From NCBI GenBank assembly GCA_964579205.1, contig CAZOFH010000003.1, positions 18,975 through 82,974 on the forward strand: a DNA stretch of 64,000 bases, in the 5' to 3' direction. Origin of the DNA: an uncultured Christensenella sp. (GTDB lineage Bacteria; Bacillota; Clostridia; Christensenellales; UBA1242). Positions 2,971-35,772 of this stretch are shown here, piece by piece. A program made the position numbers and the translations under genes. The notes beneath the pieces were generated by a model. It had not been told where the DNA came from. It was given only the letters and a program-made list of their open reading frames with translations, and did not search any database. Within the stretch, counting starts at the first letter, position 1, and every line of letters begins with the position of its first letter.

Positions 2971-4527
2971 TTAATTCTGCAACTCCAACTCAGTGTATCG
3001 CCAAAGCGCAGTACGATTGCGAGGGTCATTCGCAAACTTGCTAGGCTCGGTCGGCTTTTTGTTTTCATAAAGAACTACATTTTTTGGCAAACGCTCCGCC
3101 AAGCATAGATACATCGTAGTTTCGATACCCTGCTCGATACTCTTGCCGCGTTTTTTGACAAACTTTGCAAAGAATGCTTTTAGCCCGCGAGCGTTTTTGG
3201 TTCTCAGGTCAGTCGAAACAGTCCCCGGATTTACACAATAAGCGTGCAAATCGTCGCGGTCAGAATACTTGTGGTCATACTCCAGTGCAAACATCAAATC
3301 CGCCAACTTGGTCTGATTGTACACATCGTCATTAGATTTTGTCGTCAGCGAGCGCACATTACGCCAATCAATCTTCGTCTTGCTCGCCTCGTTGTTGGTA
3401 ATAGTTATCACGCGCGCATCAAGACTAGCGTCGAGGAGTGGCTGCAACTTTTTGGTCAGCAAAAACGCAGACAAATAGTTCGTCGCCCACATTAATTCGT
3501 GATTTTCGTAGGTAATTTTGTGAATATTCGTCTGAATACCAGCATTGTGTATCAACACATCCACACGGTCCTGCCCGATTTCGTACAGTTTTTGCTTTAT
3601 CTCGTCCGCAAGAATGCGCACCTGTCCCATCAGGCTCAAATCTGCAACAAAGAAATACAGATTTGCCTCAGGACACTCCGCCAAAATCTCATTGCGAGCA
3701 TCCCGACAAGCGCTCGGACGGCGCCCCACTGCAAAGACTACTTGCCCCAATTTGCTCAAATTCTTTGCCATAGCCAGCCCCAGCCCGCTAGTCGCACCTG
3801 TGACGACGATGACTTTTTGCTTGGTCGCGTGCTTAGTCTTGACTAAAGGCTGAGTCGATTTTTCACCAAAAGGCACTTCTGGCTGGTGAGGGCGAGATAC
3901 ATTCAGCCCCTGCTCAGTCATCACAGGTTCAAACACCTCATTGTACTGGCTCACCTGTTCATCATATGTCAAAATCGGCTCTTCCTTGAGATGCTTGGCA
4001 GGAATTATTATCGATTTTTGCGCGATTTTCGGCACAGTTACATCACGAATACTGCGCTTCTCGAGCGGCTCAATCGCATCGATATTATCCAAAATATCAT
4101 CTGCAACCAACTCATCGTCATACGCTCTGGTATTCGGCAACTCCTCATCCACCGAAAACAACTCATCGACCTCGTCAAAATCCGTGTCGTCGACAGTCGT
4201 CACAAACTCATCGTCATCGACAATCTCGGTCACGCGCGGAGTAGATTGATTTTTTATGTCCGCAAGTTGCGAAATCACCTCATCTGCCCCACCATTTTCC
4301 GCAAAATTTTCCTCTTTGCGTGGACGACCGCGGTTGCGTTTTGGCTTGTTCTCCAAAAAACTCTCATCCACCTCTTTACGAGGGCGCCCACGAGGACGCT
4401 TCTCCTTGATAGTTTCTATTTCGCCGCCTTCTTTGCGCGGACGACCGCGAGGACGCTTTTCTTGAGTCTCGCTGGTAGCGGGATACTTGCGAGGTCGCCC
4501 CCTACCCTTTTTCTTTTCTTCTTCCAT
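2971..4527 (-). CDS. SDR-family oxidoreductase with four N-terminal AT-hook motifs and an acidic linker
   Basis: TGATSGLG (TGxxxGxG), NAG and YNQTK (YxxxK) SDR motifs; RGRPRK x4 in the first ~72 aa. Confidence 0.85.
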   Translation of the reverse strand: MEEEKKKGRGRPRKYPATSETQEKRPRGRPRKEGGEIETIKEKRPRGRPRKEVDESFLENKPKRNRGRPRKEENFAENGGADEVISQLADIKNQSTPRVTEIVDDDEFVTTVDDTDFDEVDELFSVDEELPNTRAYDDELVADDILDNIDAIEPLEKRSIRDVTVPKIAQKSIIIPAKHLKEEPILTYDEQVSQYNEVFEPVMTEQGLNVSRPHQPEVPFGEKSTQPLVKTKHATKQKVIVVTGATSGLGLAMAKNLSKLGQVVFAVGRRPSACRDARNEILAECPEANLYFFVADLSLMGQVRILADEIKQKLYEIGQDRVDVLIHNAGIQTNIHKITYENHELMWATNYLSAFLLTKKLQPLLDASLDARVITITNNEASKTKIDWRNVRSLTTKSNDDVYNQTKLADLMFALEYDHKYSDRDDLHAYCVNPGTVSTDLRTKNARGLKAFFAKFVKKRGKSIEQGIETTMYLCLAERLPKNVVLYENKKPTEPSKFANDPRNRTALWRYTELELQN

Positions 4528-13007: not shown

Positions 13008-13568
13008 ATGGAACTACTTTCGCTCTACTCAAACAGCCCGAATTCCTGTGATATTTTGGCAGAGTTTTTGACGAAACATTTTTTTACGCCGCCGATAATT
13101 CTCTGCCTCGGCACAGACAAAATGCTAGCGGATTGTTTGGGCGCGGTGGTCGGCACTAACCTCAGAAATAGTGATTATCCAAACTATGTATACGGAGGAA
13201 TGCTCGCACCGATTACGCATCAAAACGCGCAATTTTGCCACGACTTTATCCACACAATGCACCCATTTTCGCCGCTAATAATTATCGACAGTATGGCGAC
13301 AATTACACAATCGCGGCTGGCGCATATTAGCGTTCGCGACGACTACATCGGCGCAGTCAATTCACTCAATCTTCACGCCGATTTATTTATTTACGGCATC
13401 AGCGCAATTCTCAAAAATGACCACCTGCATTCAGCCAAGTTGTGCAATATTTTGAGCCTAAACAACACAATAATTGTGGGGATAAAAAAATTCCTAAAAA
13501 ATACTCAAAAAATCGGCAAAAATTCTTTTATCCCCAATATTTCGCATTTTTCTTCTAGCAAATATTAG
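13008..13568 (+). CDS. yyaC: YyaC-like spore protease (DUF1256 family)
   Basis: LCLGTDKMLADCLGAVVG and IIIDS motifs matching the YyaC C-I-G-T-D-x-x-x-G-D-x-L-G pattern; origin-proximal location. Confidence 0.7.
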   Translation: MELLSLYSNSPNSCDILAEFLTKHFFTPPIILCLGTDKMLADCLGAVVGTNLRNSDYPNYVYGGMLAPITHQNAQFCHDFIHTMHPFSPLIIIDSMATITQSRLAHISVRDDYIGAVNSLNLHADLFIYGISAILKNDHLHSAKLCNILSLNNTIIVGIKKFLKNTQKIGKNSFIPNISHFSSSKY

Positions 13569-13667
13569 GGCTATCAAAACGAGAACTCATCAGCATTTTA
13601 TCAGCAGGGTATCATACTCGAGCACGGGTATTTTTGATTTTTTTTCTTTTAATTTTTACGCGTTCGC

Positions 13668-13708
13668 AAACGCAAAAAGTTATCCACTGTGGATAACTTT
13701 TTGCGTTT
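13668..13708. repeat. 41-bp perfect palindrome containing overlapping inverted DnaA boxes
   Basis: aaacgcaaaaagttatccac-t-gtggataactttttgcgttt, 20-bp arms. Confidence 0.9.
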
Positions 13709-13911
13709 ATTTTTTCTGATTTTTTTATATTTATTTTTTATTTTTAATCATTTAATTTTTGCTTTTAACAACGGGTACAAAAAATTTTATTTTTTACAAT
13801 TTGGGGTAGGAAATATTTGCGCAAATGTGGAAAATTTTTCATCTTTAATTTTTTGTAAAAACCACATAGCCGCGTAAAAAATATTTGCAGCCCAAAATAC
13901 AAAAAAGAATA

Positions 13912-14361
13912 TTATTTACCAAAATCAGAGTGGATTTCTATTTTTTCGCCCGCAAAAAGTGTGCCATTATCCAAGTCTTTTAGCAGTTGCTCTTTCAATT
14001 CCACGGGCAACAAATTCAGATTTTTGAGTTCATCCAGCGACACAAGCACAGGCTCATAGTCGCCGCCGACACGGTCATCACGATACTCTTCGGCATCCGT
14101 TTTACTCACTTCGCCACTCAACCATTCTGCACAAAAAATGCCCTGACGACGATAATCCATCAAATCATAGACCAATTTTCGAGGGCGAATAGTAATATTC
14201 AATTCCTCCTTGATTTCCCTTATGACGCACTGTTCAGCGCTCTCATTTGGCTCCAACCTGCCGCCGGGCAAGACGAAGAAATGCGCCCCATTTTTCCAGC
14301 GCTCAATAAGAGCGATTTTGCCGTCTTTAATAACGATCGCCCGAAAACCAGAATACTGCAT
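13912..14361 (-). CDS. NUDIX hydrolase
   Basis: Nudix box GGRLEPNESAEQCVIREIKEELNI. Confidence 0.92.
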   Translation of the reverse strand: MQYSGFRAIVIKDGKIALIERWKNGAHFFVLPGGRLEPNESAEQCVIREIKEELNITIRPRKLVYDLMDYRRQGIFCAEWLSGEVSKTDAEEYRDDRVGGDYEPVLVSLDELKNLNLLPVELKEQLLKDLDNGTLFAGEKIEIHSDFGK

Positions 14362-14443
14362 AATACCTCCAAATAATCAAGTGAGGATAAAGCGTAATTT
14401 TCTCCTCAGAGCCGCGCGTAATATTTTTACGAATTTTAATAAT

Positions 14444-14467
14444 CAAAAAGTTATCCACTGTGGATAA
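14444..14467. repeat. Second copy of the 24-bp inverted DnaA-box pair
   Basis: caaaaagttatccactgtggataa, identical to 13673-13696. Confidence 0.85.
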
Positions 14468-16389
14468 TTTTAAAATTGTCGCAAATTCGCAAAAATGATA
14501 GTTAGGTGACTAAAAATTGCGGGTAACCCGCTAAAAATCAGCGGCTAACCGACGCAAAATTGCATTTTGTGATTTTAGAGCGTATTCACAATACAGGGTA
14601 ATCTAACAAAAAGCATAATTTGCAAATTACCTTATCAGTTACAAAAAACTTTTCCACACCTATCTTGATAAGTGGAAAACTCAACAAAAAACGCAGAGCA
14701 TTTTTTGCTAAAAACAGCGAAAACTTTTGACAATTTTGGGGGCAAGAAAAATGCCACGAGATTAGCGAATCCCCGTAAAAAATGCACTGCCACAACACAA
14801 CTTAGCGCAAACGCCCGCAGTAGTCGCGGTCGCAACAAGGGCTATCATCACGACAGCCCGCACGCAGTCATCAAATTAGGTAAATCTTTATTGCCTTTTG
14901 ACAGCTCACAAAAGCAAGCCCTTAATCCCGTAGTTGCCGTTTTTGTCATTTCCGCTCGGATACTTTTTGTGACATCAGAAACATAAACAGCCGAATTGAC
15001 GCAAATTTTTGAGCAATACTACCAGCCCAAAAAACATATCAAAATATCGCTATTTGCCCCGACAACACAGCCTCAAAATCACACACAAAGCCCCGCTCTA
15101 GTCGACATTTTAACCCAAATTACAGTCATCCCGACAGTTATTTGGACCACCTGCCTCAATAGTCAAAAGCACCCGACGAGCAGCCGTAAGAATCCAACCT
15201 CGGACGAGCACCGACCACCATTTTTGCTCTCGGCATACACTCCAACAATCCAGCATTTCCCATAAGCATTCGGCGACTACCCAAGCCTAACCGACTCCAA
15301 TAAGAGCCGCTCACTATTCGCTCAAACCGTAACACAAGCCTCACTCAAGCCGCCACTTCACTAGAAAATCACTCTAGCGCCCCCCCATCTAGGACATCCC
15401 AAGCCCAGCAAAAGTCGTCCCAAAAATCACTCATTACCAGCCTGATAGCGACATAAAATGTGACCAACTAACAAAACAAAACTGAGTACTCGCCTAACCT
15501 TAACACGGCATCAAACCGTCATTACACAGTAAGCAATCAAACACGATACACCCTCTCGACTAACCCTATCCAGCATACTACCGCACGCCGTTTGACTCGC
15601 CAAAATTTCGGCACCTTGCCCAATCATCCAGCCCATTGATACCGTGCTAATTATCGCACTCGGCACATCATACTCCTTAAGCCATGGCTCAACATCTCGC
15701 TCAATAATCCCTAGCCAATAGTCTCGCCCTTTCCACATCTAGCCCAGCAGCGACCGAGCCGCAGCCGCCGTTCAAAAACTCTAGCCGCATCACGACTGCC
15801 GCCACTTTTGAGCAGCGACCATCTCCTCAAAGTCTGCGCCCAATCCACAGTACTTTTGCCATCCGGCGATAGTACAATCGATCAGGATACTGCACATATT
15901 ATTACACACGTACAAAGCCCCTGTCAACGTTTTGAGACACCTTTCTCTCAAAAAGGCGATTTTCGTACTTTTTGCACAAATATCCACAACGCGCCCTCCG
16001 AATTTTTGGCTTAACTAAAGGCTTTTGTCCACATTTCCACTTTTACACAATTTAAAATTTTACAAAATTTGCGAAAAACAAACACTTATCGACGCGCAAT
16101 TTTTTAACAATTCAACCAGCCACAGCCACTCAGCGCCCCTGCTATCACCACACATCCCGACAATTCAAGAACCTCAAACATTCATCCGTCAATCAATCTT
16201 TCAAACAATCCGCTAATTTATCAATCTTCCCATTTATTCATATCCTTATTCCCCTCAAATTCTCATCCACTTCAAAACCCATTCATTTCCAATCATACCA
16301 ATTCAAATCCTATGCAATCCCCTCCACCGTTCATCTCATTCCATTAAGACCAACACGAGCACGCTTATCCAGCCCACAACCTGCAGCAC

Positions 16390-17038
16390 TTATTCACAAT
16401 TCTATCTCACAAAGAACGAGAGAGAAAAATATATATTTTTTATTTTTTAATTAATAGGAGTATTAGTATATATTGTGGAAATGTGGAAAACTTTACTAGC
16501 GCCGCCGCAATTCTGGCTTAACAAGGGCATTTTCGCCATATTTCGACAAGTGATTTTATTGTGGATAATCTGTGGATAACTACCTTTTTGTGCGTGGATA
16601 ACTCAAAAAATTCCGTGGATAACTCGTGCAAAATCGTGGATAACTCACCCTTTCGAGCGATTTTGGCAAATTTCTTGTAAAATTTCCACAGACATAAGGA
16701 GTTTTTGGCTTATTTAAAGGCTTTTCGGATTGCCCTAATTTTTTCAGTCGCCTCACAAATTTCTACTTATTTGCAAAATTTGTAAAAAATCGCTCCCGCA
16801 TTCCGCTTCCACCGTCTAAACTACTCATTTTTCAGCCTGAAATTACCAGTAGTTTTATAATTATATTATAAACTACTGGTAAAAATTGCAAAACTATTTT
16901 ACGACAAATTTTTACTTTTTGTGCAAAAGTGTTATTTTGTGGATATTTATCCACATACCAAATGCCCTTGCCTAGGGCGTTTCCTTGAGTTATCCACGAA
17001 ATCCACAATTTAGTGCATTGTGGATAAAATGTGGAAAA
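16390..17038. promoter_or_regulatory. Dense DnaA-box cluster with adjacent AT-rich tract; oriC candidate
   Basis: TTWTNCACA-type boxes at 16390, 16482, 16560, 16571, 16947, 17019 and 17030; one-mismatch boxes at 16593, 16614, 16635, 16938 and 16990; AT-rich stretch ~16420-16475; upstream of rpmH. Confidence 0.8.
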
Positions 17039-17405
17039 GTGGAAAAGTCGGTTTTGCGCCCTCAGCAAATTGCAAAAATCCCATCATTCTCAAATTCCCC
17101 CTCAAGCAATAATCAGCCCAAACTTCCTTAGCCCTGCCCCATAATCGCCCCACCCCTGCGGGTAAGCCAACTTGCCAATCACAATACCATAATTATCTAA
17201 CAATAAAATCCTGTCCACCACATCAGGTCAATCCCCTTGCGGCCCCTACACAATCTACCACACCTATCTACTTCCCCCCACTCACCCCCCCCCAGAATCC
17301 TCGCCCCTATCCTTATCTCGTCAGCCTTTTTACGACAGCCCTATCCTTGGAAATTACTAGATTATTTGTTAAAAAGTACTTTTTCCAAAACCTTGCAAAA
17401 GGGGC

Positions 17406-24775: not shown

Positions 24776-25062
24776 ATATCCACAAAATCTAATTTTATTC
24801 ATAAAAAATTTTGATAAAATTGCTAAAAATTAGGTAAAATTCGGTAATAATTTTTTATTATTCTGGACTGAAAAAGTTTTACAACAATTTTGTTCTAACT
24901 ATCGGAATTATCAAATTGCAAATAGCCTAAACAAAAGGATTTAAAAAAGTTATCCACAATCACATCAATAAAAAACTGCAAAAATCGCGGTTTTTCGCTG
25001 TAAAAACATCGCAAATATTATCGAAATTAAAAGTTATCCACATAGTTATCCACATTTCCACA
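24776..25062. promoter_or_regulatory. Further DnaA-box cluster upstream of mnmG
   Basis: Perfect TTATCCACA at 24950, 25034 and 25046; one-mismatch boxes at 24776 and 25054; AT-rich flanks. Confidence 0.75.
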
Positions 25063-25289: not shown

Positions 25290-28200
25290 ATGAGCAAGTT
25301 ATACAAAAAAATTTATAATTATTTATTTGTAGTCTTGGGCATCGCGCTGATGTCTTGTCTTGCTATAACGTTTTGCTGGTTGGGTAATCCAAAATCACAA
25401 AAACAAGCGTTTGCGATCGAGGGGGAGTCTGTAGGTTATTGGTTGGATGATGGGAATTTTACTGAAATAAATTTAGGTGCGGCAACCGAATTTGAAATCA
25501 GCACGCCCGAGCAGTTCGCTGGAGTGTGTGCGGCAATAAATAAAGCGACAGATACTGCGGTTTTTGGCGGGGTGACTTTTTACATAACTCAAAATTTGGA
25601 TTTTTCGGCGCATTATTGGGTGCCTATAGGCTTATCGAGTGCTGAAAATTCGGTTTTGGCAAAATTTGTGGCTCGGACAAACAGTAATCAAGACACTATT
25701 CAATTAAGTGGAATAAAAATCGACAACACTTTGTCTGATTTTGCGACCAAATTCCCAGAGATTTCTGCGTTTGGCTTGTTTGGAGTGGTGGATAATTGTG
25801 TGCAAGTTTCTCAAGGATTTATTAAAGGCATCGAACTGGTTGATATGGATATAAAAATTGACCTCAGCAAAGTATCTGCCGACACAATTAATGTTGGTGG
25901 TGTGGCTGGATACTTTGCGGGGCAAAAAGAAAGCAACACGCCAGGGGTGAGTGGTGCTGGTATGATAAATTGTTGCGCGAGCGGTACGATCACTATAACG
26001 CAGTCTACAACAACGGATACAAAAACTGTAAATGTTGGCGGGGTGGTCGGAAATATCGGATTAAATACTTCGACGGGTGCCGGGGCGATGCTTAGTTACA
26101 CAGGGACTTCGATTGCGCAAAGGTTTCAGACTAATGCGGTAGAAATTTCTGTGACTGGCGGTGCGAACAATTTTAATATCGGCGGAGTTGTTGGGCAAAA
26201 TAATGGTACTATTAACGCAAAAAACACCACTTCGACTGAAATTTTCGTGAAAAATCTAAGTAAAATCGCTTCAGATACGGGTAATTGTGGTGGAATCGTT
26301 GGGTTGAATTCTGTCAATAGTGTGGTAGAAAATCTCTCGAGCGGGACAGACGATACTTCTGTTACAAATGCAAAAATCGCCGCTGCGGGTGATAGCGTGC
26401 AAGAAAAATTCTGCGCTGGCGGAATTGCGGGAAGTAATAAAGGAACAATCAAGAACTGTGCTAATTACGCGACGCTGAGTACTTACCAAGGCGCTCTCGG
26501 CGGAATAGCGGGCGACAATGCTAATGTGATAGATAATTGTAAAAACATGGGAATTATTGGCGTCGATAGCACGAGCATACCTGCGAGCGCTGTGAATATC
26601 GATGGAGTAAATCTCAACACCACAATCATTTTGGGTGGAATTGTTGGTAAAAATAGTGCCGCGACAGCCATAATTTCTCTTTGTAAAAATAATGGAGCAA
26701 TCGGCGGAATCGGGCAAGTCAATTATTTGGGCGGCTCTTTTGGGGGAGTGATTGGTAGTAATTGCGCCAACGCGACAATAAAAAATTGTGTAAATTACGC
26801 AACAATCGGCACGAATATTTACGCCAAAAATGCCGGCGGAATAGCGGGCTCAAACTCTGGTAAAATCACCTCGGACACAACTTTGTCTACGGCTAGCGAA
26901 TTTAAATTTACCGCAAATTTGGGTGACGTATATGCTAACAGTTATGCGGGCGGAATCGCTGGCGAGTGGAATAATGAAGTGCTGGGGATGCCGACGATTG
27001 AGATTTCGAACTGTTATAACAAAGGTAAAATCGACGGGCGGATTATGGGGGACAATACGAGTGCCTCAGTGGGAGGAATTTTGGGTGTTTCTCGGAATTG
27101 TCAATCCGATTCGCAAATAAAAAATTGTATTAATTTGGGGCAAATTGGCTCGACAAACGCCGTAGGCACTGCTGGCGGAATTATCGGCGATTCGCAATCT
27201 GTATTTGTGATACAGAATTGTGCAAATTATGGGACTTTGTCTGCAGCTGCTAATTTGGGCGGCATCATCGGCAATATCACTACTGCGGCGCCAACCTTTA
27301 ATTTGGTGATGGCTACTGGCGGATTGTTGCCGCAAAGCGATAATACAAATATTGGTGGAATTGTAGGCAAAATTGCGACGGGTATCACTATAGAGAGTGA
27401 TAGTTTGACAAAAAGCATTTTTGACCTCGGGGTGCTGGGATATGGCTTGCCATCGAACTTGCCTGATTACAAAGAGAACAAACTTTACCCTCTAAAAGTC
27501 ATAGGTTTTGGGAATACGCAGGCGAGATTTTCCCTTCTCAATTCGCCGATTACATATTATATGACTGCTCCCGGGGTGGAGTCTACTACCGGTAGAGAGT
27601 ACCATACGCTCGCATTTTTGAATAGTAGTGACTGGTATTTCCCGACTCAAAATCAGTCTACCCAAACATATTATTATGCTGTGCCAAAAATTTTTCAAGA
27701 TAACGGAATTTTTACTACTGATACCTCTAGTGCGTGGCAAAATGCCGTCGGTGCGCCTTATCCATCTCAACAACTCGCGAAAGTTTCGATAGAAAATCGC
27801 CTGCCGATAGCGTGGGATGCGGAGAATGATGCGGAAGTGGTGCAGTCGTACTATGTGAATATTTTTGACGGCTTGTTGCCTGAAAGTGCAAAAGCGAGCG
27901 TAATCGCAGGCGAGGGGCAGTATGTAATCATTGGGCAAAAAATTGCAAAACCGACGCAAAGCACAACCGCGATTTACCGAGACAGTGACACAACTGCGAG
28001 CGCTTATGATGAGCAAGTGAACGCTCTCGGGTGGAGTGGTCAGTACAATTTTCACGAAGGTTATCAGTCAGAATTCAAGAAAAATCAGCCTTATGGCGAA
28101 GAGTACACTTTTACTGAGAATGTCTTGGATTATAATTTAAATATCATCATAAAATGGACGCCGCGCGCATTCGAGGTGCAGTTGTATGTGTATGATTACG

Positions 28201-30152
28201 ACAACGACGAGTACAAGTTGCAAAATCGCGACGGTCAGGCGAACGAATTTATCACTTATTCGTTAAAGCCGGGTAACAAGCAGACGATTAGCCTGCTCAG
28301 CACAATGGGCAAAACCTATTACGGCTGGAGGTTGGACGGAACGCTCATTCGTACCGATTACGAAAACGAAGATGCGTGGATTGCTGCGTGGGTAAGTGAT
28401 TCGACGACCGAATTTGACCAAAATCAAATCTATCCTAGCGGACTAAAACTATATTGTATGTCCACATTGCAAAAAATTACCCTGCATCTCGGTGCTGGCG
28501 AAATTAGTATTTCTGGGACTGGCGGCGGCATCAGCGGAGTTTTTGACAGCAGCGTCACCCAAATCAACAGAGAGGTGCAATTTGGTATTCAGGTACAGTT
28601 GCCAATTCCGACAATTAGTGTGGCAAATTATACTTTCGAAGGGTATTTCGATATCAACGGCAACAGAAAGACTGCCGCGGATGCAAAATATACGCACACC
28701 GATGCTGCGACTGAGTTTGCGTTGGTGGCGCATTGGACATACACAATAAAATACATCAGGTATGTGTCAAAAATTGATGGTAACGAAATCGAACTAAAAA
28801 CGGTGGAGGCGACTTACAATCAGCCAATTAGCCTTGACAATCAGGCGAGTGAGCAGAATTTTGCGACATGGAACATAAATTACACGATGATTAATTCGGA
28901 GATTGACCCGCTTGGCTACAAATTCAGCGGCGCATATAGCGACCCTGAATGTCAAAATGCTTTTGATTATACCCAAGATATCACGGGCGACTTGACGATT
29001 TATATCGCGTGGGAGCGGTTGAGTTTTACCCTGATGCTCAACGCAAATATCGGATACGATTTGTCAGGGAATTTGCGCGAAGGTGGCTGGGGAGATGGCT
29101 CTAGGATCATTACGCTAAGAGTGCCATATAATGAAAATTTGACTACTTATCTGCAAAACTGGAAAAGTAGCGAAACAGAAAAAAGCGCTGTCAGCGCTAC
29201 GGGTTTTGAACCAATATTAAAAGGAACGGGGTACAACTGGGCTTTGCGCGCTATTCCGATGGGAGATGACTTTACCTCGGATGCGCTCCTCGCAAACAAT
29301 GCTGACAAAAACTTTATGCCAGCGAACAACACCCTTGCCTTGTACATTGTGTGGGAAAGGCAGTTTTATGACATAATTTTTAACGCGAACACGGGGTACT
29401 TCCCAAGCGATAGTGGGGGTGCAACCACTACACAAACGCGCAAAATCTTGTACGAGGCGAATATCAAAAATGCAATCAACTCTTTTGACGCCGACTCGCT
29501 GCAAACAGTCAAGGTCGACGATTATTCAAAATGGGTATTCAAATACTGGAGTCTGACTCCTGACGGCGTGGAAATCCCTGCTGATACCATTATGGGGACA
29601 GGGCTCACGGTTTATGCGATTTATGGTGAGCAGCGTATTGTAAAATTTTATGTCGGCGGCGCGCAACCGGGCAACAAAATCGGTGAAATGATTGTACCAG
29701 ACGGTGCTATTTTGGGCGAAATGTCTGACAAAATGGCTGACTTTAATAAAAGAATTCAAGAAATGCTGCAAGATAGTGAAAGCAAGCAAAGTGCTTTTGA
29801 CTTGGATTATTGGGTAGAAATGACTTACGATGTGGCATACAATATTACCGAATCGACTGAGCCATTTGATTTTGATACTCGCGTGATAAATGAAAATATC
29901 GACTTGCTCGCAAAATTGAAGCCGAACGCAAATTATGTCGCACCGAGCAAAGATACTACAAACTACATAATTATTGCGGGAATTGTGATTGTGGCATCGC
30001 TCGTGCTGTTGTTTGTCGTGTTGGTTGCGCGACCTGCAAAAGCAAGTCTATCTACCGACAAAAAAGCGAAAAACAAGGAAATACAAGCGCAACTAGACGA
30101 AATCAAAGAGTTGGAGCGTCGGCGCAGAAATATGGATAACCCTTATGACTAA
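25290..30152 (+). CDS. Large cell-surface protein with GLUG-like repeats, InlB-B-repeat-like domains and a C-terminal TM anchor
   Basis: N-terminal hydrophobic signal; about 10 GGI(A/V)GxNxxxIxNC repeats; GYxFxGxY...YxxW modules; TM segment YIIIAGIVIVASLVLLFVVLV followed by a basic tail. Confidence 0.85.
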   Translation: MSKLYKKIYNYLFVVLGIALMSCLAITFCWLGNPKSQKQAFAIEGESVGYWLDDGNFTEINLGAATEFEISTPEQFAGVCAAINKATDTAVFGGVTFYITQNLDFSAHYWVPIGLSSAENSVLAKFVARTNSNQDTIQLSGIKIDNTLSDFATKFPEISAFGLFGVVDNCVQVSQGFIKGIELVDMDIKIDLSKVSADTINVGGVAGYFAGQKESNTPGVSGAGMINCCASGTITITQSTTTDTKTVNVGGVVGNIGLNTSTGAGAMLSYTGTSIAQRFQTNAVEISVTGGANNFNIGGVVGQNNGTINAKNTTSTEIFVKNLSKIASDTGNCGGIVGLNSVNSVVENLSSGTDDTSVTNAKIAAAGDSVQEKFCAGGIAGSNKGTIKNCANYATLSTYQGALGGIAGDNANVIDNCKNMGIIGVDSTSIPASAVNIDGVNLNTTIILGGIVGKNSAATAIISLCKNNGAIGGIGQVNYLGGSFGGVIGSNCANATIKNCVNYATIGTNIYAKNAGGIAGSNSGKITSDTTLSTASEFKFTANLGDVYANSYAGGIAGEWNNEVLGMPTIEISNCYNKGKIDGRIMGDNTSASVGGILGVSRNCQSDSQIKNCINLGQIGSTNAVGTAGGIIGDSQSVFVIQNCANYGTLSAAANLGGIIGNITTAAPTFNLVMATGGLLPQSDNTNIGGIVGKIATGITIESDSLTKSIFDLGVLGYGLPSNLPDYKENKLYPLKVIGFGNTQARFSLLNSPITYYMTAPGVESTTGREYHTLAFLNSSDWYFPTQNQSTQTYYYAVPKIFQDNGIFTTDTSSAWQNAVGAPYPSQQLAKVSIENRLPIAWDAENDAEVVQSYYVNIFDGLLPESAKASVIAGEGQYVIIGQKIAKPTQSTTAIYRDSDTTASAYDEQVNALGWSGQYNFHEGYQSEFKKNQPYGEEYTFTENVLDYNLNIIIKWTPRAFEVQLYVYDYDNDEYKLQNRDGQANEFITYSLKPGNKQTISLLSTMGKTYYGWRLDGTLIRTDYENEDAWIAAWVSDSTTEFDQNQIYPSGLKLYCMSTLQKITLHLGAGEISISGTGGGISGVFDSSVTQINREVQFGIQVQLPIPTISVANYTFEGYFDINGNRKTAADAKYTHTDAATEFALVAHWTYTIKYIRYVSKIDGNEIELKTVEATYNQPISLDNQASEQNFATWNINYTMINSEIDPLGYKFSGAYSDPECQNAFDYTQDITGDLTIYIAWERLSFTLMLNANIGYDLSGNLREGGWGDGSRIITLRVPYNENLTTYLQNWKSSETEKSAVSATGFEPILKGTGYNWALRAIPMGDDFTSDALLANNADKNFMPANNTLALYIVWERQFYDIIFNANTGYFPSDSGGATTTQTRKILYEANIKNAINSFDADSLQTVKVDDYSKWVFKYWSLTPDGVEIPADTIMGTGLTVYAIYGEQRIVKFYVGGAQPGNKIGEMIVPDGAILGEMSDKMADFNKRIQEMLQDSESKQSAFDLDYWVEMTYDVAYNITESTEPFDFDTRVINENIDLLAKLKPNANYVAPSKDTTNYIIIAGIVIVASLVLLFVVLVARPAKASLSTDKKAKNKEIQAQLDEIKELERRRRNMDNPYD

Positions 30153-30202: not shown

Positions 30203-30286
30203 TTTATTAACTTTGATTTTCTACTTGAAAAAATCTTGTTCGTAATATATAATAATGTAATAAAATTGTACAAAAGGGGTAAAAAT

Positions 30287-31588
30287 ATGGATACAATTTG
30301 TGCGATTTCGACCGCCGTCGGGAATGGTGGCGTGGCGATAATCAGGATTAGTGGCGATCGTGCGTTGTCTATCGGGGCGACCGTTTTTGAAAAATTGGGC
30401 AAGAACCCAAAACCGCGCTACGCAATATTTGGTAAAATCTGTTTTGAGGATATTCGTGATGAGGCTTTGGCGCTCTATTTTCCTGCGCCGAATAGTTTTA
30501 CTGGCGAGGATGTGGTGGAATTACAAATCCACGGGGGGTATTATTTGGCTCAAAGTCTAGTAAAATATCTGATTTCGCAAGGAGCAAGGCTCGCAGAAAG
30601 GGGAGAATTTAGTCGCCGCGCAGTGCTAAATGGACAAATGGATATGAGTAAGGCTGAAGGGATAATTGACATTATCAATGCGACCTCGAATAGCCAACTG
30701 CGTGCTGGGTCTAGTCTGCTAGCGGGGGCGATGACGCAATATGTCGGTGCGCTCCAAGACGAACTCACTGAATTGATGTGCGAGGTCAATGTTGCGCTCG
30801 ATTATCCTGAGCACGATATCGAATACATTACTGCGCAAAAAATCGCTCAAAAATGTACCGAAATTATCCAAAAAATCGACCAAAAACTCGCCACTGCAGA
30901 GACGGGGGCTTTGGTAAAAAATGGCGTCAATGTCGTGCTGGCGGGTAAGCCAAATGCAGGGAAGTCTAGCATACTCAATGCTCTATTGGGGTATGAGCGG
31001 GCAATAGTTACTGAGGTCGCTGGCACAACACGCGACACTGTGAGTGAAAGTTACGAATACAACGGTGTAAGGTTTAATATTATTGACACCGCGGGAATTC
31101 GTGACACTGCTGATATTGTCGAGGGTGCAGGAATTGACCGCGCAAAGCGCGAAATCCAGCACGCCGATATCGTGCTACATATTACCGATGCGGGCGACTC
31201 GGGCACTGAAACAATAGAAGCAAAAAATATAATAAAAATTGCGAATAAAATTGACAAAAATTCGTCAACAAAAATCACTTGCGACATTGCGGTCAGTGCA
31301 AAAACTGGTGATAATATTGAGACGCTCAGGCAGATGATTTTTGACAAGACTATCAACTCTAGCGTGCTGCTGGGTGGAGATTTTTTGACCAATACTCGCC
31401 ACATCGAATGCCTCAGAGATGCCCGTGCCGCTCTCACCGATACGATACAAAATTGTCAAGACGCGACCATTGATTGCCTCGCTGTTACATTAATGCAGGC
31501 GTGGAATAAATTGGGCGAAATCACAGGAGAGAGTGCGAGCGAAAAAATATTGAATGAAATTTTTGCACGATTTTGTCTCGGAAAATAA
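30287..31588 (+). CDS. mnmE: tRNA modification GTPase MnmE (TrmE)
   Basis: DTICAISTA, SFTGEDVVELQIHGG, GKPNAGKSS, GTTRD, DTAGIR and C-terminal FCLGK; start at ATG 30287. Confidence 0.98.
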   Translation: MDTICAISTAVGNGGVAIIRISGDRALSIGATVFEKLGKNPKPRYAIFGKICFEDIRDEALALYFPAPNSFTGEDVVELQIHGGYYLAQSLVKYLISQGARLAERGEFSRRAVLNGQMDMSKAEGIIDIINATSNSQLRAGSSLLAGAMTQYVGALQDELTELMCEVNVALDYPEHDIEYITAQKIAQKCTEIIQKIDQKLATAETGALVKNGVNVVLAGKPNAGKSSILNALLGYERAIVTEVAGTTRDTVSESYEYNGVRFNIIDTAGIRDTADIVEGAGIDRAKREIQHADIVLHITDAGDSGTETIEAKNIIKIANKIDKNSSTKITCDIAVSAKTGDNIETLRQMIFDKTINSSVLLGGDFLTNTRHIECLRDARAALTDTIQNCQDATIDCLAVTLMQAWNKLGEITGESASEKILNEIFARFCLGK

Positions 31589-31993
31589 TAATTATAAAAT
31601 TGATATAGCGATATATCAATTTTATTTTTTGCGCATAGAGCAGAATTTTGCTTGCGTGAATATTGGCGAAAATCTATCTCAAAAAAATCCACAAAAAAAA
31701 TACAACAAAAAAACAAATAAAATATGAAATAATAATAGAATAGGGGAATATTGCCCGCAAATAATCCAACAAAAAAATCATAAAAAAATAATAAAAATAT
31801 CAATAAATAGGCAAAAAACAACAAATTTATTTCTTTGACTCTTGTTGCTATACGCAAACTGTCGCGGTGTGGAGGTTCGCTCCGCTCGCGGATTCTACGG
31901 ACGCCGCTAGCGCCCTCTGAATAGCAAGCCGATGTAAAGGGCAGACGCGCTCGCGGTCATACTATTGGAATAAATTAACCGTATTAAAAAGTA

Positions 31994-32332
31994 TTAGAAC
32001 AAGTAGATTTTTGTTTCGGTAGTTTGATAGTCGATGAGAATATTTGGTGCGTGAAAAATCACCTGCAACAATCGTCCGCCTCTCGCCTGATACTCTTGAG
32101 AAATTTCGGTCAATTTTTGGCGCAACTGGCTAGGGGACAGGAGGAGGATTTGCGGCATACTGTACCCCAGCGTCTTGGCGTCTATAATGCTGATATCAAA
32201 TTCGCAAAACACGCTCAACACGGCGCTCACCTCACTAATGCTCGTATCATCGAGCATTGGGTACTGCGCAAAAATTGCGCTTGTTTCGTCCTCTAAAATT
32301 CCGAAATATTGGGTAAACTCGCTTTGTTTCAT
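31994..32332 (-). CDS. Small mTERF-like repeat protein
   Basis: PQILLLSPSQLRQKL and APNIL motifs resemble those of the upstream gene; AAGGAG RBS overlaps the upstream stop codon. Confidence 0.55.
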   Translation of the reverse strand: MKQSEFTQYFGILEDETSAIFAQYPMLDDTSISEVSAVLSVFCEFDISIIDAKTLGYSMPQILLLSPSQLRQKLTEISQEYQARGGRLLQVIFHAPNILIDYQTTETKIYLF

Positions 32333-32335
32333 AAA

Positions 32336-33808
32336 TTACTCCTTTACGCACACCGCGTCCAACTCTGCCTTGTCAAGTTGCACGCGTTGCCCAACTTGGG
32401 CATAGTATTCATCCTCGACCTGTCGCACAGCGCTCCTGTCGAGAGGGTACTCTGCGATAAGGTCGGCGCTATTTTTGCCGAAAATACTCTGGAATTTGGA
32501 CTCGGTAAAGGCGATTGCGCCACGATTGGCTGAATACTCGGTCGCGCGAATGTGCTTTAGACGCGCGTAAGTCTTTGCCTCATTCTGAATGAAAATCGCC
32601 GACTGCATCCCCACCTCAGCAAGTGGCGAAATATTAAAAAGCATATAGCGGATTTTGATTTTGTTGGACGGCATACCGAAAAGGATAGGCATCCGCGTCA
32701 ACACAGACCTATCTATACCCAATTCGTCAATAACCCTCAATTTATTGACGACCGCGCTTGGCTCTTTGCTATTCGGGTCGCAGTCGTAGCCCAAAATATT
32801 GGTAAACTTGAGGAAAACCGACCTGTCTACCCCCATACTTTCGTAAAAGTGCACCTTATTGATAATGGCTGCGGGATTGTTTGAGGTCGCTGAACAGTCC
32901 ATCCCGAGAATTTGCGGATAAGAGTTGATTTGCGCCGCAGAAAACCCGAGCTCTCTCTGCAAAAATCGCATCTTGCTAGCGATAGAGGTCTCGCTAGTGC
33001 TTTCAGGGTCGCAGTCAGATAGCAAAATCTCAGGCGCCTGCTGCCACGCGATCGGACTCAGTCCAAAAGCCTCGCCCAGCAGCGCTATTTTGTGTTGGAC
33101 TGAAAAATGCGACTCACTCTGCGGGTCACAATCCAATACCAGCAAATTCGGGCAACTACGGAATTGCTTTTGCCCCAGCCCGACCTCCTCGAGCGCGGCA
33201 ACCTTGTTGCGAATGTTGGCAGGATTTGTCGAACCCTCAGAGCAATCCATCATCAAAATTTGCGGGCATTTGTGGAATTGACGCTTGCCAAAGCCCAACT
33301 CTTTGGTCAGATATCTCAGTTTGTATGGCAAACAGTTCGGTGTGCCATTGTCTTCGATGCTGTACTGCAAAATCGACGGATATTTGACTATGGTCTCGTG
33401 CGTGAAACCGCATTGCTCCTCCAAATATAGCACCTTTTGCCGAATAGATGACGGCGCCGTCGCGTCAGCCTCAGCGCTGAGGGTGAGAATGGTCGGACTC
33501 TTGGCAATGGATGCCCTGCCTAGCCTAAAATTCTGCTCCAATAGCGCGGCTTGTCTATCATAATATCGTGTATATTCCTCGCTAGACCCTGCTGGCGAAA
33601 CCAAAAAAGACAAATGATGCACGACGCGATTGGCAGGAATGCCTAGATTATTCACCAAATAATTCAAGCGAAAATTAACCGCCGAAATCAACTCATTTTC
33701 GTCATCAAAACTACGCCCCCAATGCGAATTGCGCGCTGTCTCAAAAAAACGCTCAGCCAACTGGCTAGGAATATCACACCCAGCCACTGAAATTTGCGAA
33801 ATATCCAT
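32336..33808 (-). CDS. Helical-repeat protein resembling mTERF (about 9 repeats of 38-39 aa)
   Basis: Repeat consensus K-(V/L)-x-(F/Y)L-x-x-x-x-G-(x)8-9-P-x-IL-x-x-(D/S); start at ATG 33808 with AGGAGG RBS. Confidence 0.7.
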   Translation of the reverse strand: MDISQISVAGCDIPSQLAERFFETARNSHWGRSFDDENELISAVNFRLNYLVNNLGIPANRVVHHLSFLVSPAGSSEEYTRYYDRQAALLEQNFRLGRASIAKSPTILTLSAEADATAPSSIRQKVLYLEEQCGFTHETIVKYPSILQYSIEDNGTPNCLPYKLRYLTKELGFGKRQFHKCPQILMMDCSEGSTNPANIRNKVAALEEVGLGQKQFRSCPNLLVLDCDPQSESHFSVQHKIALLGEAFGLSPIAWQQAPEILLSDCDPESTSETSIASKMRFLQRELGFSAAQINSYPQILGMDCSATSNNPAAIINKVHFYESMGVDRSVFLKFTNILGYDCDPNSKEPSAVVNKLRVIDELGIDRSVLTRMPILFGMPSNKIKIRYMLFNISPLAEVGMQSAIFIQNEAKTYARLKHIRATEYSANRGAIAFTESKFQSIFGKNSADLIAEYPLDRSAVRQVEDEYYAQVGQRVQLDKAELDAVCVKE

Positions 33809-33832
33809 ACTCGCCGTCCTCCTTATATCATT

Positions 33833-33861
33833 ATTATAACACATTTATTCTAATAATGCAA
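33833..33861 (-). promoter_or_regulatory. Sigma-A promoter of the mTERF-like operon
   Basis: TTGCAT, 17 bp spacer, TATAAT with extended TG on the minus strand. Confidence 0.75.
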
Positions 33862-34404
33862 TAGCAAAATCAAAATTTTAGCACAAATTTTTTAATTTCG
33901 CCCAAAATTCAGATTCTCACTAATTTTTTGCAGCATAAAATTGCAAGGTTCTCAGGTCGCTGGCGGAATTCGAGGCGCTTTTTGACAATGAGATAATCAC
34001 CTACCTAAAGGAGTAGCGATAAAGTGGCGTACATAAAAAAGCAGATAGAAGAAGGGAAATTGCCGCTTGCACACAATAATGCACATTTGGAGGGTGGGGC
34101 GAAATAGACGGTGGATGATTTTTGAGCAACCGTTGCACCTTTTTAATCCGCTGGTGTCGATTTTCAAGGTTGCTACCGTTAGTTTTTGTGGGGGCGCGGG
34201 GGCGTTTTTTGGCTGCAAGTAGTGGAGCGAAAGGGGGAAAATGGCGAAAAATTTGAAAATTTGTCAAAAAGTGTACGAAATCATTTGTAAAATTTGGCAA
34301 ATATGTTTATAATATATTATATAAAGAATTGTAATTTGGGCAAGAAACGCTTTTTACTGAGTTCGTTTGGGCAAAACGAAACGCAATAAATAGGGGGTAA
34401 CAGA

Positions 34405-35772
34405 ATGAAAAAATGGTTGTGCGCGCTATCAATTTGCACAGTGGCAGGAATGGGTGCGCTGGGATTCGCTGGGTGCAGCAATGGAGAAGAGGTTGCGTCT
34501 ATCCGCATCAAGACTTTGCCAGAGACGAGTTTTATTGTGGGGGATGTGGTGACACCGACGCTAAAAGACGGTGTTTTTACCATTCAATATAATAACGGGC
34601 GGACGAGCGACCTGCCTTTGAGCGCTGCCGACCTAGTGTATGTGGATTACAACGACGGCACGACGGGGAACCAATTTACCCAAGCCAACCGTGCGCAAAT
34701 CGTGGTGGTTCGCTACAAAACAAAGTCCACGACCTATAATGTAAATGTGGTCAAGAGCGAAATGGCTATCGAATATCAAAAGAATTATTCCGCAGTATAC
34801 AATGGCACGCAGCAGCGCCTGAATGACAGCCTGTCGATAGCGCTCCCTGACGGCGTGAGTATCACTAATATTGAATACAAATTGAGTGGCAGCGAGGCGG
34901 ATTTCTCTAGCATTCCGCCGGTAGATGCTGGCGTGTACAATGTGCGCGTGACCCTCAATGGCGGCTCAAAATACAATGACGCCGTGCTCAATGATATTGA
35001 GTACACTATCAAGAGGGCGGATATCAGTTTTGCTTTGGATAAAACGGTAACTTTCGGCGATATTTTTATGCAATACAATGACAATATCGACCCTAGCAAA
35101 AACTGGAATGTTGACGACCAGGGCATCCCGAATATCCTTACCAACGCCCTCAAAACTCAGTACCAAGGCATCGCGGCGCAGATAAAATACGCGTACAAAT
35201 CGACAGCGAGCGGTGCGGCAGAGAATTATACAGATTTGACCCAAGAGGGCGGCGAATGGACGCTCAAAAACCTCGCTCCCGGTGCATACAAATTGCGTGC
35301 ATACTGTGGCGACCTCGACAATTTTAATAGTTTCGCTTATGAATGTAACCTCGACATTTCGGCGCGCGCTCTCAAATATGGGGAGGATTACGAACTCCGC
35401 ATTATGCAGGGCACCACGACTACCGCTTATGTTGAGACTGACTCGCTGATGAACATTCAGACCCAAATACTCACCACCGATCCGACTAGTGTCAGGGTAG
35501 AGGTGATTTTCCTCAACGAAACGGTACAAAATAAACTAGAGAACACACCTGTGATTTACCTTAATTATTCTGCGCCATTCGCAGCCAACTGGGGCGGCGA
35601 GGGTGTGACCCAAATCACTCAATACGGCGATTACAAGATTAGCATTTCGGCGAAATTTGCGGGCAATGTATGCTACTTTGGTAGCGAGCCGCTCGGCATA
35701 AATGTCGCCGACCCCGCCAATCCGCCGGTGAACCCTACTCCTGGCGAAATCCCTACCATTCCTACCGAATAA
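34405..35772 (+). CDS. Lipoprotein with Ig-like and MBG-like domains and a Pro-rich tail
   Basis: Lipobox-like FAGC at residues 21-24; IRIKTLPETSFIVGD Ig-like start; YNGTQQ...PVDAGVYNVRVT MBG-like motif. Confidence 0.7.
   Translation: MKKWLCALSICTVAGMGALGFAGCSNGEEVASIRIKTLPETSFIVGDVVTPTLKDGVFTIQYNNGRTSDLPLSAADLVYVDYNDGTTGNQFTQANRAQIVVVRYKTKSTTYNVNVVKSEMAIEYQKNYSAVYNGTQQRLNDSLSIALPDGVSITNIEYKLSGSEADFSSIPPVDAGVYNVRVTLNGGSKYNDAVLNDIEYTIKRADISFALDKTVTFGDIFMQYNDNIDPSKNWNVDDQGIPNILTNALKTQYQGIAAQIKYAYKSTASGAAENYTDLTQEGGEWTLKNLAPGAYKLRAYCGDLDNFNSFAYECNLDISARALKYGEDYELRIMQGTTTTAYVETDSLMNIQTQILTTDPTSVRVEVIFLNETVQNKLENTPVIYLNYSAPFAANWGGEGVTQITQYGDYKISISAKFAGNVCYFGSEPLGINVADPANPPVNPTPGEIPTIPTE

Follow-up and report, generated by a model that had tools for sequence, protein, structure and literature searches.

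mTERF proteins are usually described as nuclear-encoded, organelle-targeted proteins of eukaryotes. Human MTERF1 is a sequence-specific binder of double-stranded DNA (dsDNA) that acts as a mitochondrial transcription terminator and fork barrier; MTERF1, DmTTF and mtDBP are polar barriers to transcription or replication in mitochondria. Here we describe a pair of genes, coding for proteins of 490 and 112 amino acids (aa), in a stretch of 64,000 nucleotides (nt) from an uncultured Christensenella sp., a gut member of the Clostridia with a small genome (assembly GCA_964579205.1, contig CAZOFH010000003.1), in the following simply called the window. Profile searches and predicted structures identify both products as mTERF-fold solenoids.

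The closest described systems are the ‘pTERF’ proteins, prokaryotic mTERF-like tandem-repeat proteins from metagenome-assembled genomes (MAGs) of ruminant-gut Clostridia, published in Nucleic Acids Research in 2024 (PMC11417379). According to its pTERF section, about 46 homologues with 3-11 units are found, all from MAGs and mostly from Bacillota. pTERF1 (MBQ3414883.1) binds the dsDNA motif ACTNNNAGTC with a dissociation constant of 1.87 nM (electrophoretic mobility shift assay, biolayer interferometry and reporter activation), and pTERF2 binds a different specific dsDNA motif. pTERF1 was assigned to a cluster with a 35-aa period, and its authors describe the canonical Pro/Leu pattern as absent. 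As far as that section goes, bacterial mTERF relatives have been shown in this single paper, purely in vitro; a 2026 paper on plant mTERF proteins called the family absent from prokaryotes (PMC12977773). The novelty that an initial annotation of the window had implied for a bacterial mTERF was thus overstated, and the 2024 report, in the part that describes pTERF, removes its headline.

The evidence for the fold comes from profiles and from structure models. Lack of an mTERF profile signal had been set in advance as ground for giving up the assignment; the large protein scored 38.8 bits on the Pfam mTERF profile (PF02536; E = 6.6e-10, in 3 stretches), against a whole-protein gathering threshold of 23.1 bits. 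In the case of the small protein, the score was just under this threshold (19 bits, E = 7e-4), and seven of eight of its homologues match the profile individually, the best at E = 7e-6. With 11 homologues as input, AlphaFold2 modelled the large protein at a mean predicted local distance difference score (pLDDT) of 90.5 and a predicted template modelling score of 0.76. When this model was compared with the PDB by Foldseek, ranks 1-6 were all mTERF proteins (probability 0.98-1.00): MTERF1-DNA complexes (3mva, 3mvb, 5crj, 3n7q), MTERF3 (3m66) and a Tetrahymena mitoribosomal mTERF. The E-values were modest (~1e-2), with template modelling (TM) scores of 0.29-0.46 normalised to the target, as is typical when solenoids differ in length. 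As MAFFT aligned the small proteins to repeats within the large ones, the joint alignment was unusable and the small protein was modelled alone; its model (pLDDT 86.7) consists of three helix-helix-short-helix units, and mTERF proteins, including MTERF3 and MTERF4, fill the first 18 ranks of its PDB search. HEAT, LRR and ankyrin solenoids, named beforehand as the competing folds, provided the best match of neither model.

At the sequence level, the family profile matches a canonical mTERF protein (P0138) at E = 3.6e-13 among 1.8 billion proteins searched, and BLASTP aligns the large protein to it repeat by repeat at 25% identity. P0138 itself scores 171.7 bits on the Pfam profile and lies on a short contig of 55% GC, and its origin is probably eukaryotic. 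Searches of PDB sequences, with the single sequence and with the profile, gave no match, and NCBIfam gave nothing meaningful for the gene pair. The pair is encoded in a bacterial genome, with a bacterial promoter and ribosome-binding sites; nuclear encoding and organelle targeting describe the distribution of the mTERF family, not the definition of its fold.

Regarding the repeats of the large protein, P-x-(I/L)-L anchors lie at residues 105, 144, 182, 220, 259, 298, 336 (Thr for Pro) and 374, and degenerate motifs flank this canonical array on both sides. The initial annotation had counted about nine tandem repeats of 38-39 aa: the period stands, and the number has to be corrected to eight canonical units plus the degenerate flanking motifs. 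An extra loop of ~8 aa (DC-x-P-x-S), also reported there, is indeed extra with respect to the ~30-aa textbook motif, but compared to P0138 with its 36-37-aa spacing the loop is only ~2 residues longer. In each unit, DSSP assignment on the AlphaFold2 model gives two helices, of 10-12 and 6 residues, followed by a short 5-residue helix and a D-C-D-P-x-S loop of ~12 residues. Across nine orthologues, G(-10), P(0), I/L(+2) and L(+3) are identical across the repeats, with Pro present in seven of the eight repeats of the window protein, and conservation is also high at D(+6), C(+7), K(-19) and S(+11). Residues at -24, -21 and +8 vary among repeats and are kept among orthologues; judged from the alignment, they behave as expected for specificity positions. 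Additionally, charge is striped along the repeat, with K/R at -19, -18, -16, -3 and -2 and D/E at -13, -12, +6 and +8. Overall, the mTERF pattern recognised at the outset is borne out by the Pfam score, the conserved Pro, Leu and Ile and the purely mTERF top structural matches. The repeats are followed by a helical C-terminal domain which is present in 145 of 158 superfamily proteins and through which most distant homologues align; searched on its own, it gave no match in Pfam.

The small protein is a mini-mTERF of three motifs with an isoelectric point (pI) of 4.4. A small gene of this kind, coding for 81-124 aa, lies directly downstream of the large gene, with a gap of 1-4 nt or an overlap, in 10 of 12 loci (the window, L034, L007, L005, L013, L014, L019, L020, L021 and L018, the last cut by a contig end), which cover subfamilies with 36-, 38/39- and 41-aa periods. 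The small proteins align with one another, and all eight partners examined are acidic (pI 4.0-4.9). A Rosetta-stone fusion of small and large protein was considered and rejected, as the small-protein profile matches just the repeat arrays of large proteins and no true fusion was found. In the window, the two genes share one reading frame, with only TAA and TTT between them (32330-32341), and read-through would yield a 604-aa fusion. Programmed read-through was rejected as well: in relatives the two genes are in different frames, overlapping or 4 nt apart, and the shared frame therefore appears coincidental.

Compared with pTERF1 by description, the window pair is probably a divergent example of this recently described and barely studied bacterial family. 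As in the pTERF section (PMC11417379), its relatives come from Clostridia MAGs and its units are contiguous, three-helical and mTERF-like, eight in the window protein against 3-11. Moreover, the window profile finds proteins whose 36-aa tandem repeats are near-identical and which carry the C-terminal domain of the window protein (E down to ~1e-30, P0053); they fit that description. Several distinctions emerge from the same comparison, again by description. The period is 38-39 aa and not that of the 35-aa cluster, the repeats are diverged where those of pTERF are near-identical, Pro and Leu occupy their canonical positions, unlike in pTERF1, and the protein is near-neutral instead of basic, with conserved Cys and Asp in its loops. 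Finally, an acidic small partner is absent from the pTERF section and the mTERF/pTERF passages of that paper. With respect to these passages, what remains new is a diverged 38/39-aa subfamily with canonical mTERF features, Cys/Asp loops and near-neutral charge, together with an acidic partner found across the superfamily.

In the case of MTERF1 (3mva, 3n7q), the best structural match of the large protein, the likeness lies in the helix-helix-short-helix motif with its conserved Pro and extends to the small protein, which MTERF1 matches with a root mean square deviation of 3.2-3.4 Å over ~100 residues. Sequence identity is however only 12-15%, and the 324 resolved residues of MTERF1 contain 8 motifs as compared to ~12 in the large protein; MTERF1 is also organelle-targeted and has neither the bacterial-type C-terminal domain nor a small partner. 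MTERF3, MTERF4-NSUN4 and plant mTERF4 and mTERF9 share the fold as well, and MTERF3 ranks first for the small protein (query-normalised TM 0.72). Their roles, in contrast, concern organellar rRNA and introns, and MTERF4 has a methyltransferase partner, none being encoded at the window locus. The canonical features of the locus tie the bacterial and organellar families together at the sequence level.

Close homologues of the large protein are few: among 5.8 billion proteins, 11 clusters at 90% identity were found, with 28-64% identity to the query and lengths of 434-491 aa (490-491 aa in nine of them). Among species-representative genomes, the full-length protein is present in 4 of the 17 genomes of the genus (genomes of ~1 Mb, with NCBI labels including ‘Christensenella sp. 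UBA4651’ and ‘uncultured Clostridia bacterium’), and shorter relatives occur in three more genomes of the same family, with no relative in 24 other families of the order; within the genus, a fifth genome has a truncated relative of 339 aa. In an even sample across the class, the superfamily occurs in 2 of 399 genomes; a per-segment Pfam survey of the class was too insensitive, since even the genome of the window fell below E = 1e-5. The genome itself (1.14 Mb, 95.5% complete) holds exactly one copy of the pair, and the locus is thereby a clean single-copy chromosomal example in a small genome of 1.1 Mb. At five loci including the window, orthologues stand beside mnmE in conserved synteny, full length and at 36-64% identity; such intact yet diverged orthologues indicate purifying selection. 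Outside this sub-clade, wider gene neighbourhoods are unconserved across loci, and the conserved unit is therefore the gene pair. As a side observation, genome G013 carries a 489-aa mTERF gene (L006) convergent to a conserved 363-aa gene, without a small partner; at the matching position, genome G007, which has no mTERF gene, shows a 625-bp gap (L029, 8764-9388), which suggests a second insertion or loss site in the genus.

A profile search of 1.84 billion representatives returned 295 clusters at E <= 1e-3. This superfamily splits by repeat period into groups of 38/39, 41 and 36 aa and others, and the 36- and 41-aa subfamilies often carry near-identical tandem units. In two of these proteins (L018 1031-2113, L019 956-2092), which share the C-terminal domain of the window protein, units differ at few positions, resembling a programmable array with a logic like that of transcription activator-like effectors. 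Some relatives are fused to helix-turn-helix (HTH) domains: P0121 to HTH_60, P0009 to HTH_19 and P0068 to an HTH array. The latter is a protein of 4679 aa with mTERF-like repeats at ~1348-1554 and at least five different HTH domains at 4020-4430.

Altogether, we favour, with a probability of roughly 0.55, a two-protein mTERF module in which the large protein would be a specific dsDNA binder and regulator and the small one its modulator. The operon encodes two mTERF-fold proteins. By analogy with pTERF1, pTERF2 and MTERF1, the 490-aa protein would form a superhelix of ~12 helical motifs, lay a basic stripe along dsDNA and recognise one specific sequence, where it may act as a site-specific transcription regulator or roadblock. 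The co-translated acidic mini-mTERF may bind the large protein, either by capping one end of the solenoid or by sitting in its groove as an antagonist, and thereby tune DNA binding; this step is the more tentative one. Specific dsDNA binding is proposed for the large protein because of the pTERF1/pTERF2 precedent, the MTERF1-DNA complexes as best structural matches, the HTH fusions, the striped charge and the repeat-specific conserved positions, and sequence-specific DNA binding is our best-supported guess at the function. For the initial proposal of a bacterial mTERF-like nucleic-acid-binding system, Pfam, AlphaFold2 and Foldseek thus uphold the fold, and we infer nucleic-acid binding of the pair by analogy. 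If correct, the module would provide a tractable bacterial model of how mTERF solenoids read nucleic acids, would shed light on where the organellar family came from and could add to the programmable DNA-binding scaffolds.

Several observations weigh against specific DNA binding. At pI 5.8 and a net charge of -6.7, the large protein is not basic, its orthologues range from pI 5.6 to 9.0, and the 38/39-aa subfamily is near-neutral while the large proteins with 36- and 41-aa periods are basic (median pI ~8.9). An operator search in the five syntenic upstream regions gave no target site attributable to the mTERF protein, and this together with the near-neutral charge is the main weakness. In addition, the two loci L006 and L035 are without the small partner, which is therefore not obligatory, and eukaryotic mTERFs are known to bind RNA and ribosomal subunits too.

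The five syntenic upstream regions do share a block of ~75 nt (window ~34240-34320) with an imperfect TTTGA-N7-TCAAA palindrome (TTTGACAAATTTTCAAA). It was rejected as an mTERF operator, as G002, G003 and G016, all without mTERF genes, carry the same motif ahead of their lipoprotein homologue. Judged from its sequence context, the block belongs to the promoter of the neighbouring lipoprotein operon. Upstream of this lipoprotein-yabP-yabQ operon, it spans a TTGTAA-17-TATAAT promoter and is near-invariant in L005, L007, L034, L035 and L026-L028; it is kept across genomes whose proteins share just 30-60% identity, including genomes without mTERF genes. The block could be a candidate operator for a regulator of this operon, which is linked to sporulation and division.

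An unlikely alternative, which nevertheless deserves weighing, is that the large protein is an RNA-binding or ribosome-biogenesis factor, its solenoid lying on rRNA or other structured RNA as in MTERF3, MTERF4 and plant mTERF4/mTERF9, with the small protein as co-factor. Among the best structural matches of the small protein are MTERF3 and MTERF4 from assembly intermediates of the mitoribosome, and those of the large protein comprise the Tetrahymena mitoribosomal mTERF. In addition, the near-neutral charge of the large protein is less suited to a dedicated DNA clamp, and the pair adjoins mnmE, a tRNA-modification gene. However, with the full-length protein in only 4/17 genomes of the genus and the superfamily in 2/399 of the class, the module is patchy, which makes a core role in ribosome assembly unlikely. 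Furthermore, the neighbourhood is unconserved outside the sub-clade, the HTH fusions of relatives point to DNA, and the only bacterial relatives tested, those of the pTERF section, bind dsDNA (PMC11417379).

Distinctly less probable is a protein-binding scaffold, in which the solenoid would hold a protein or peptide ligand instead of nucleic acid, with the small protein serving as homologous competitor or adaptor. Alpha-solenoids frequently bind proteins, the net charge of the large protein is acidic, and the family-specific Cys/Asp loops (D-C-D-P-x-S) are without counterpart in DNA-bound MTERF1; yet the mini-mTERF is the sole conserved partner gene, and all characterised mTERF-fold members, including those of the pTERF section (PMC11417379), are known to bind nucleic acid.

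A further-reaching version of the two-protein DNA-binding module, which we regard as quite improbable, would make bacterial mTERF loci two-component DNA-binding switches: the large solenoid would read the sequence, the acidic mini-mTERF would be a DNA-mimicking antagonist or an obligate end-cap, and the origin-proximal, single-copy pair would block transcription or replication in a polar manner. As a corollary, the bacterial superfamily, being in register with canonical mTERFs, would be ancestral to the organellar family, without capture from a eukaryote. Finally, a role as mobile-element cargo or in anti-phage defence, or else recent neutral capture from a eukaryote, would account for a distribution that is patchy even within one genus and for a relative (L021) near a Rep protein and a serine recombinase, but is very improbable: PADLOC, PHROGs, 50,697 phage records and 72,556 plasmids gave no meaningful match, which makes a mobile-element or defence role unlikely, GC content equals that of the neighbouring genes, synteny beside mnmE is kept across orthologues of just 40-64% identity, promoter and ribosome-binding sites are bacterial, and the C-terminal domain and partner are specific to the bacterial superfamily.

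Regarding its genomic context, the pair sits on the minus strand between mnmE (30236..31588, plus strand) and a divergent lipoprotein-yabP-yabQ-divIC operon starting at 34405. The two open reading frames, the promoter and both ribosome-binding sites could be located as first annotated (Table 1). For the large gene, an upstream ATG at 33844 gives a mechanical open reading frame of 502 aa. The promoter was read directly from the sequence; its -10 element is perfect, with a TG extension (TGTTATAAT), and its -35 element is weak, agreeing with the consensus at 3 of 6 bases, which is why the promoter is missing from the list of a consensus scanner. The promoter block (TTGCAT/TTGCAA ... TGTG(T/C)TATAAT) is kept in two related loci, L034 and L035. 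These features establish the pair as a chromosomally resident, conserved bacterial gene module with a predicted promoter of its own and coupled translation.

Table 1. Features of the mTERF gene pair, with positions counted in the window.
Feature	Position	Strand	Description
Promoter	33861..33833	-	-35 TTGCAT 33861..33856; 17-nt spacer; TATAAT 33838..33833; extended -10 TGT-TATAAT 33841..33833
Shine-Dalgarno AAGGAGG, large gene	33824..33818	-	9 nt before ATG; read from the sequence
Large gene	33808..32336	-	490 aa from ATG; stop TAA 32338..32336
Array of 8 canonical mTERF motifs	33574..32651	-	residues ~79-386; period 38-39 aa
C-terminal helical domain of ~100 aa	32650..32339	-	IKIRYML ... FIQNEAKTYAR ... 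YPLD; signature of the bacterial superfamily
Shine-Dalgarno AAGGAG, small gene	32344..32339	-	lies in the final codons of the large gene; translational coupling
Small gene	32332..31994	-	112 aa; starts three bases past the TAA of the large gene

The placement of the pair near the origin, proposed at the outset, agrees with DnaA boxes and GC skew. At up to one mismatch, 59 DnaA boxes are found in the window against 15 expected, with a larger cluster at 13.2-17.0 kb (13200-17040) and a second one at 24.95-25.05 kb (24950-25054). GC skew changes sign near 24-25 kb, with a minimum near 24 kb, and the mTERF locus lies ~7-9 kb from the second cluster and this switch. Two clusters and a skew minimum fit an origin region in which the boxes are arranged in split or bipartite form.

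Further observations concern the flanks. The 400-nt spacer between the small gene and mnmE (31589-31993) contains a GC-rich island of ~110 nt (31860-31965), followed by a very T-rich stretch; the island folds no better than shuffled sequences, and the flanking spacers gave no match in Rfam or tRNA scans. Among relatives, an additional gene for a membrane protein occupies the spacer toward mnmE in L007 and L005, whereas this spacer is empty in L035. Beyond mnmE, the window codes for a 1620-aa protein (25290-30152) with an N-terminal signal or anchor, many G-G-I-A/V-G repeat units, a C-terminal transmembrane helix and a basic tail, which keeps synteny with mnmE in the related genomes L005, L007 and L035.

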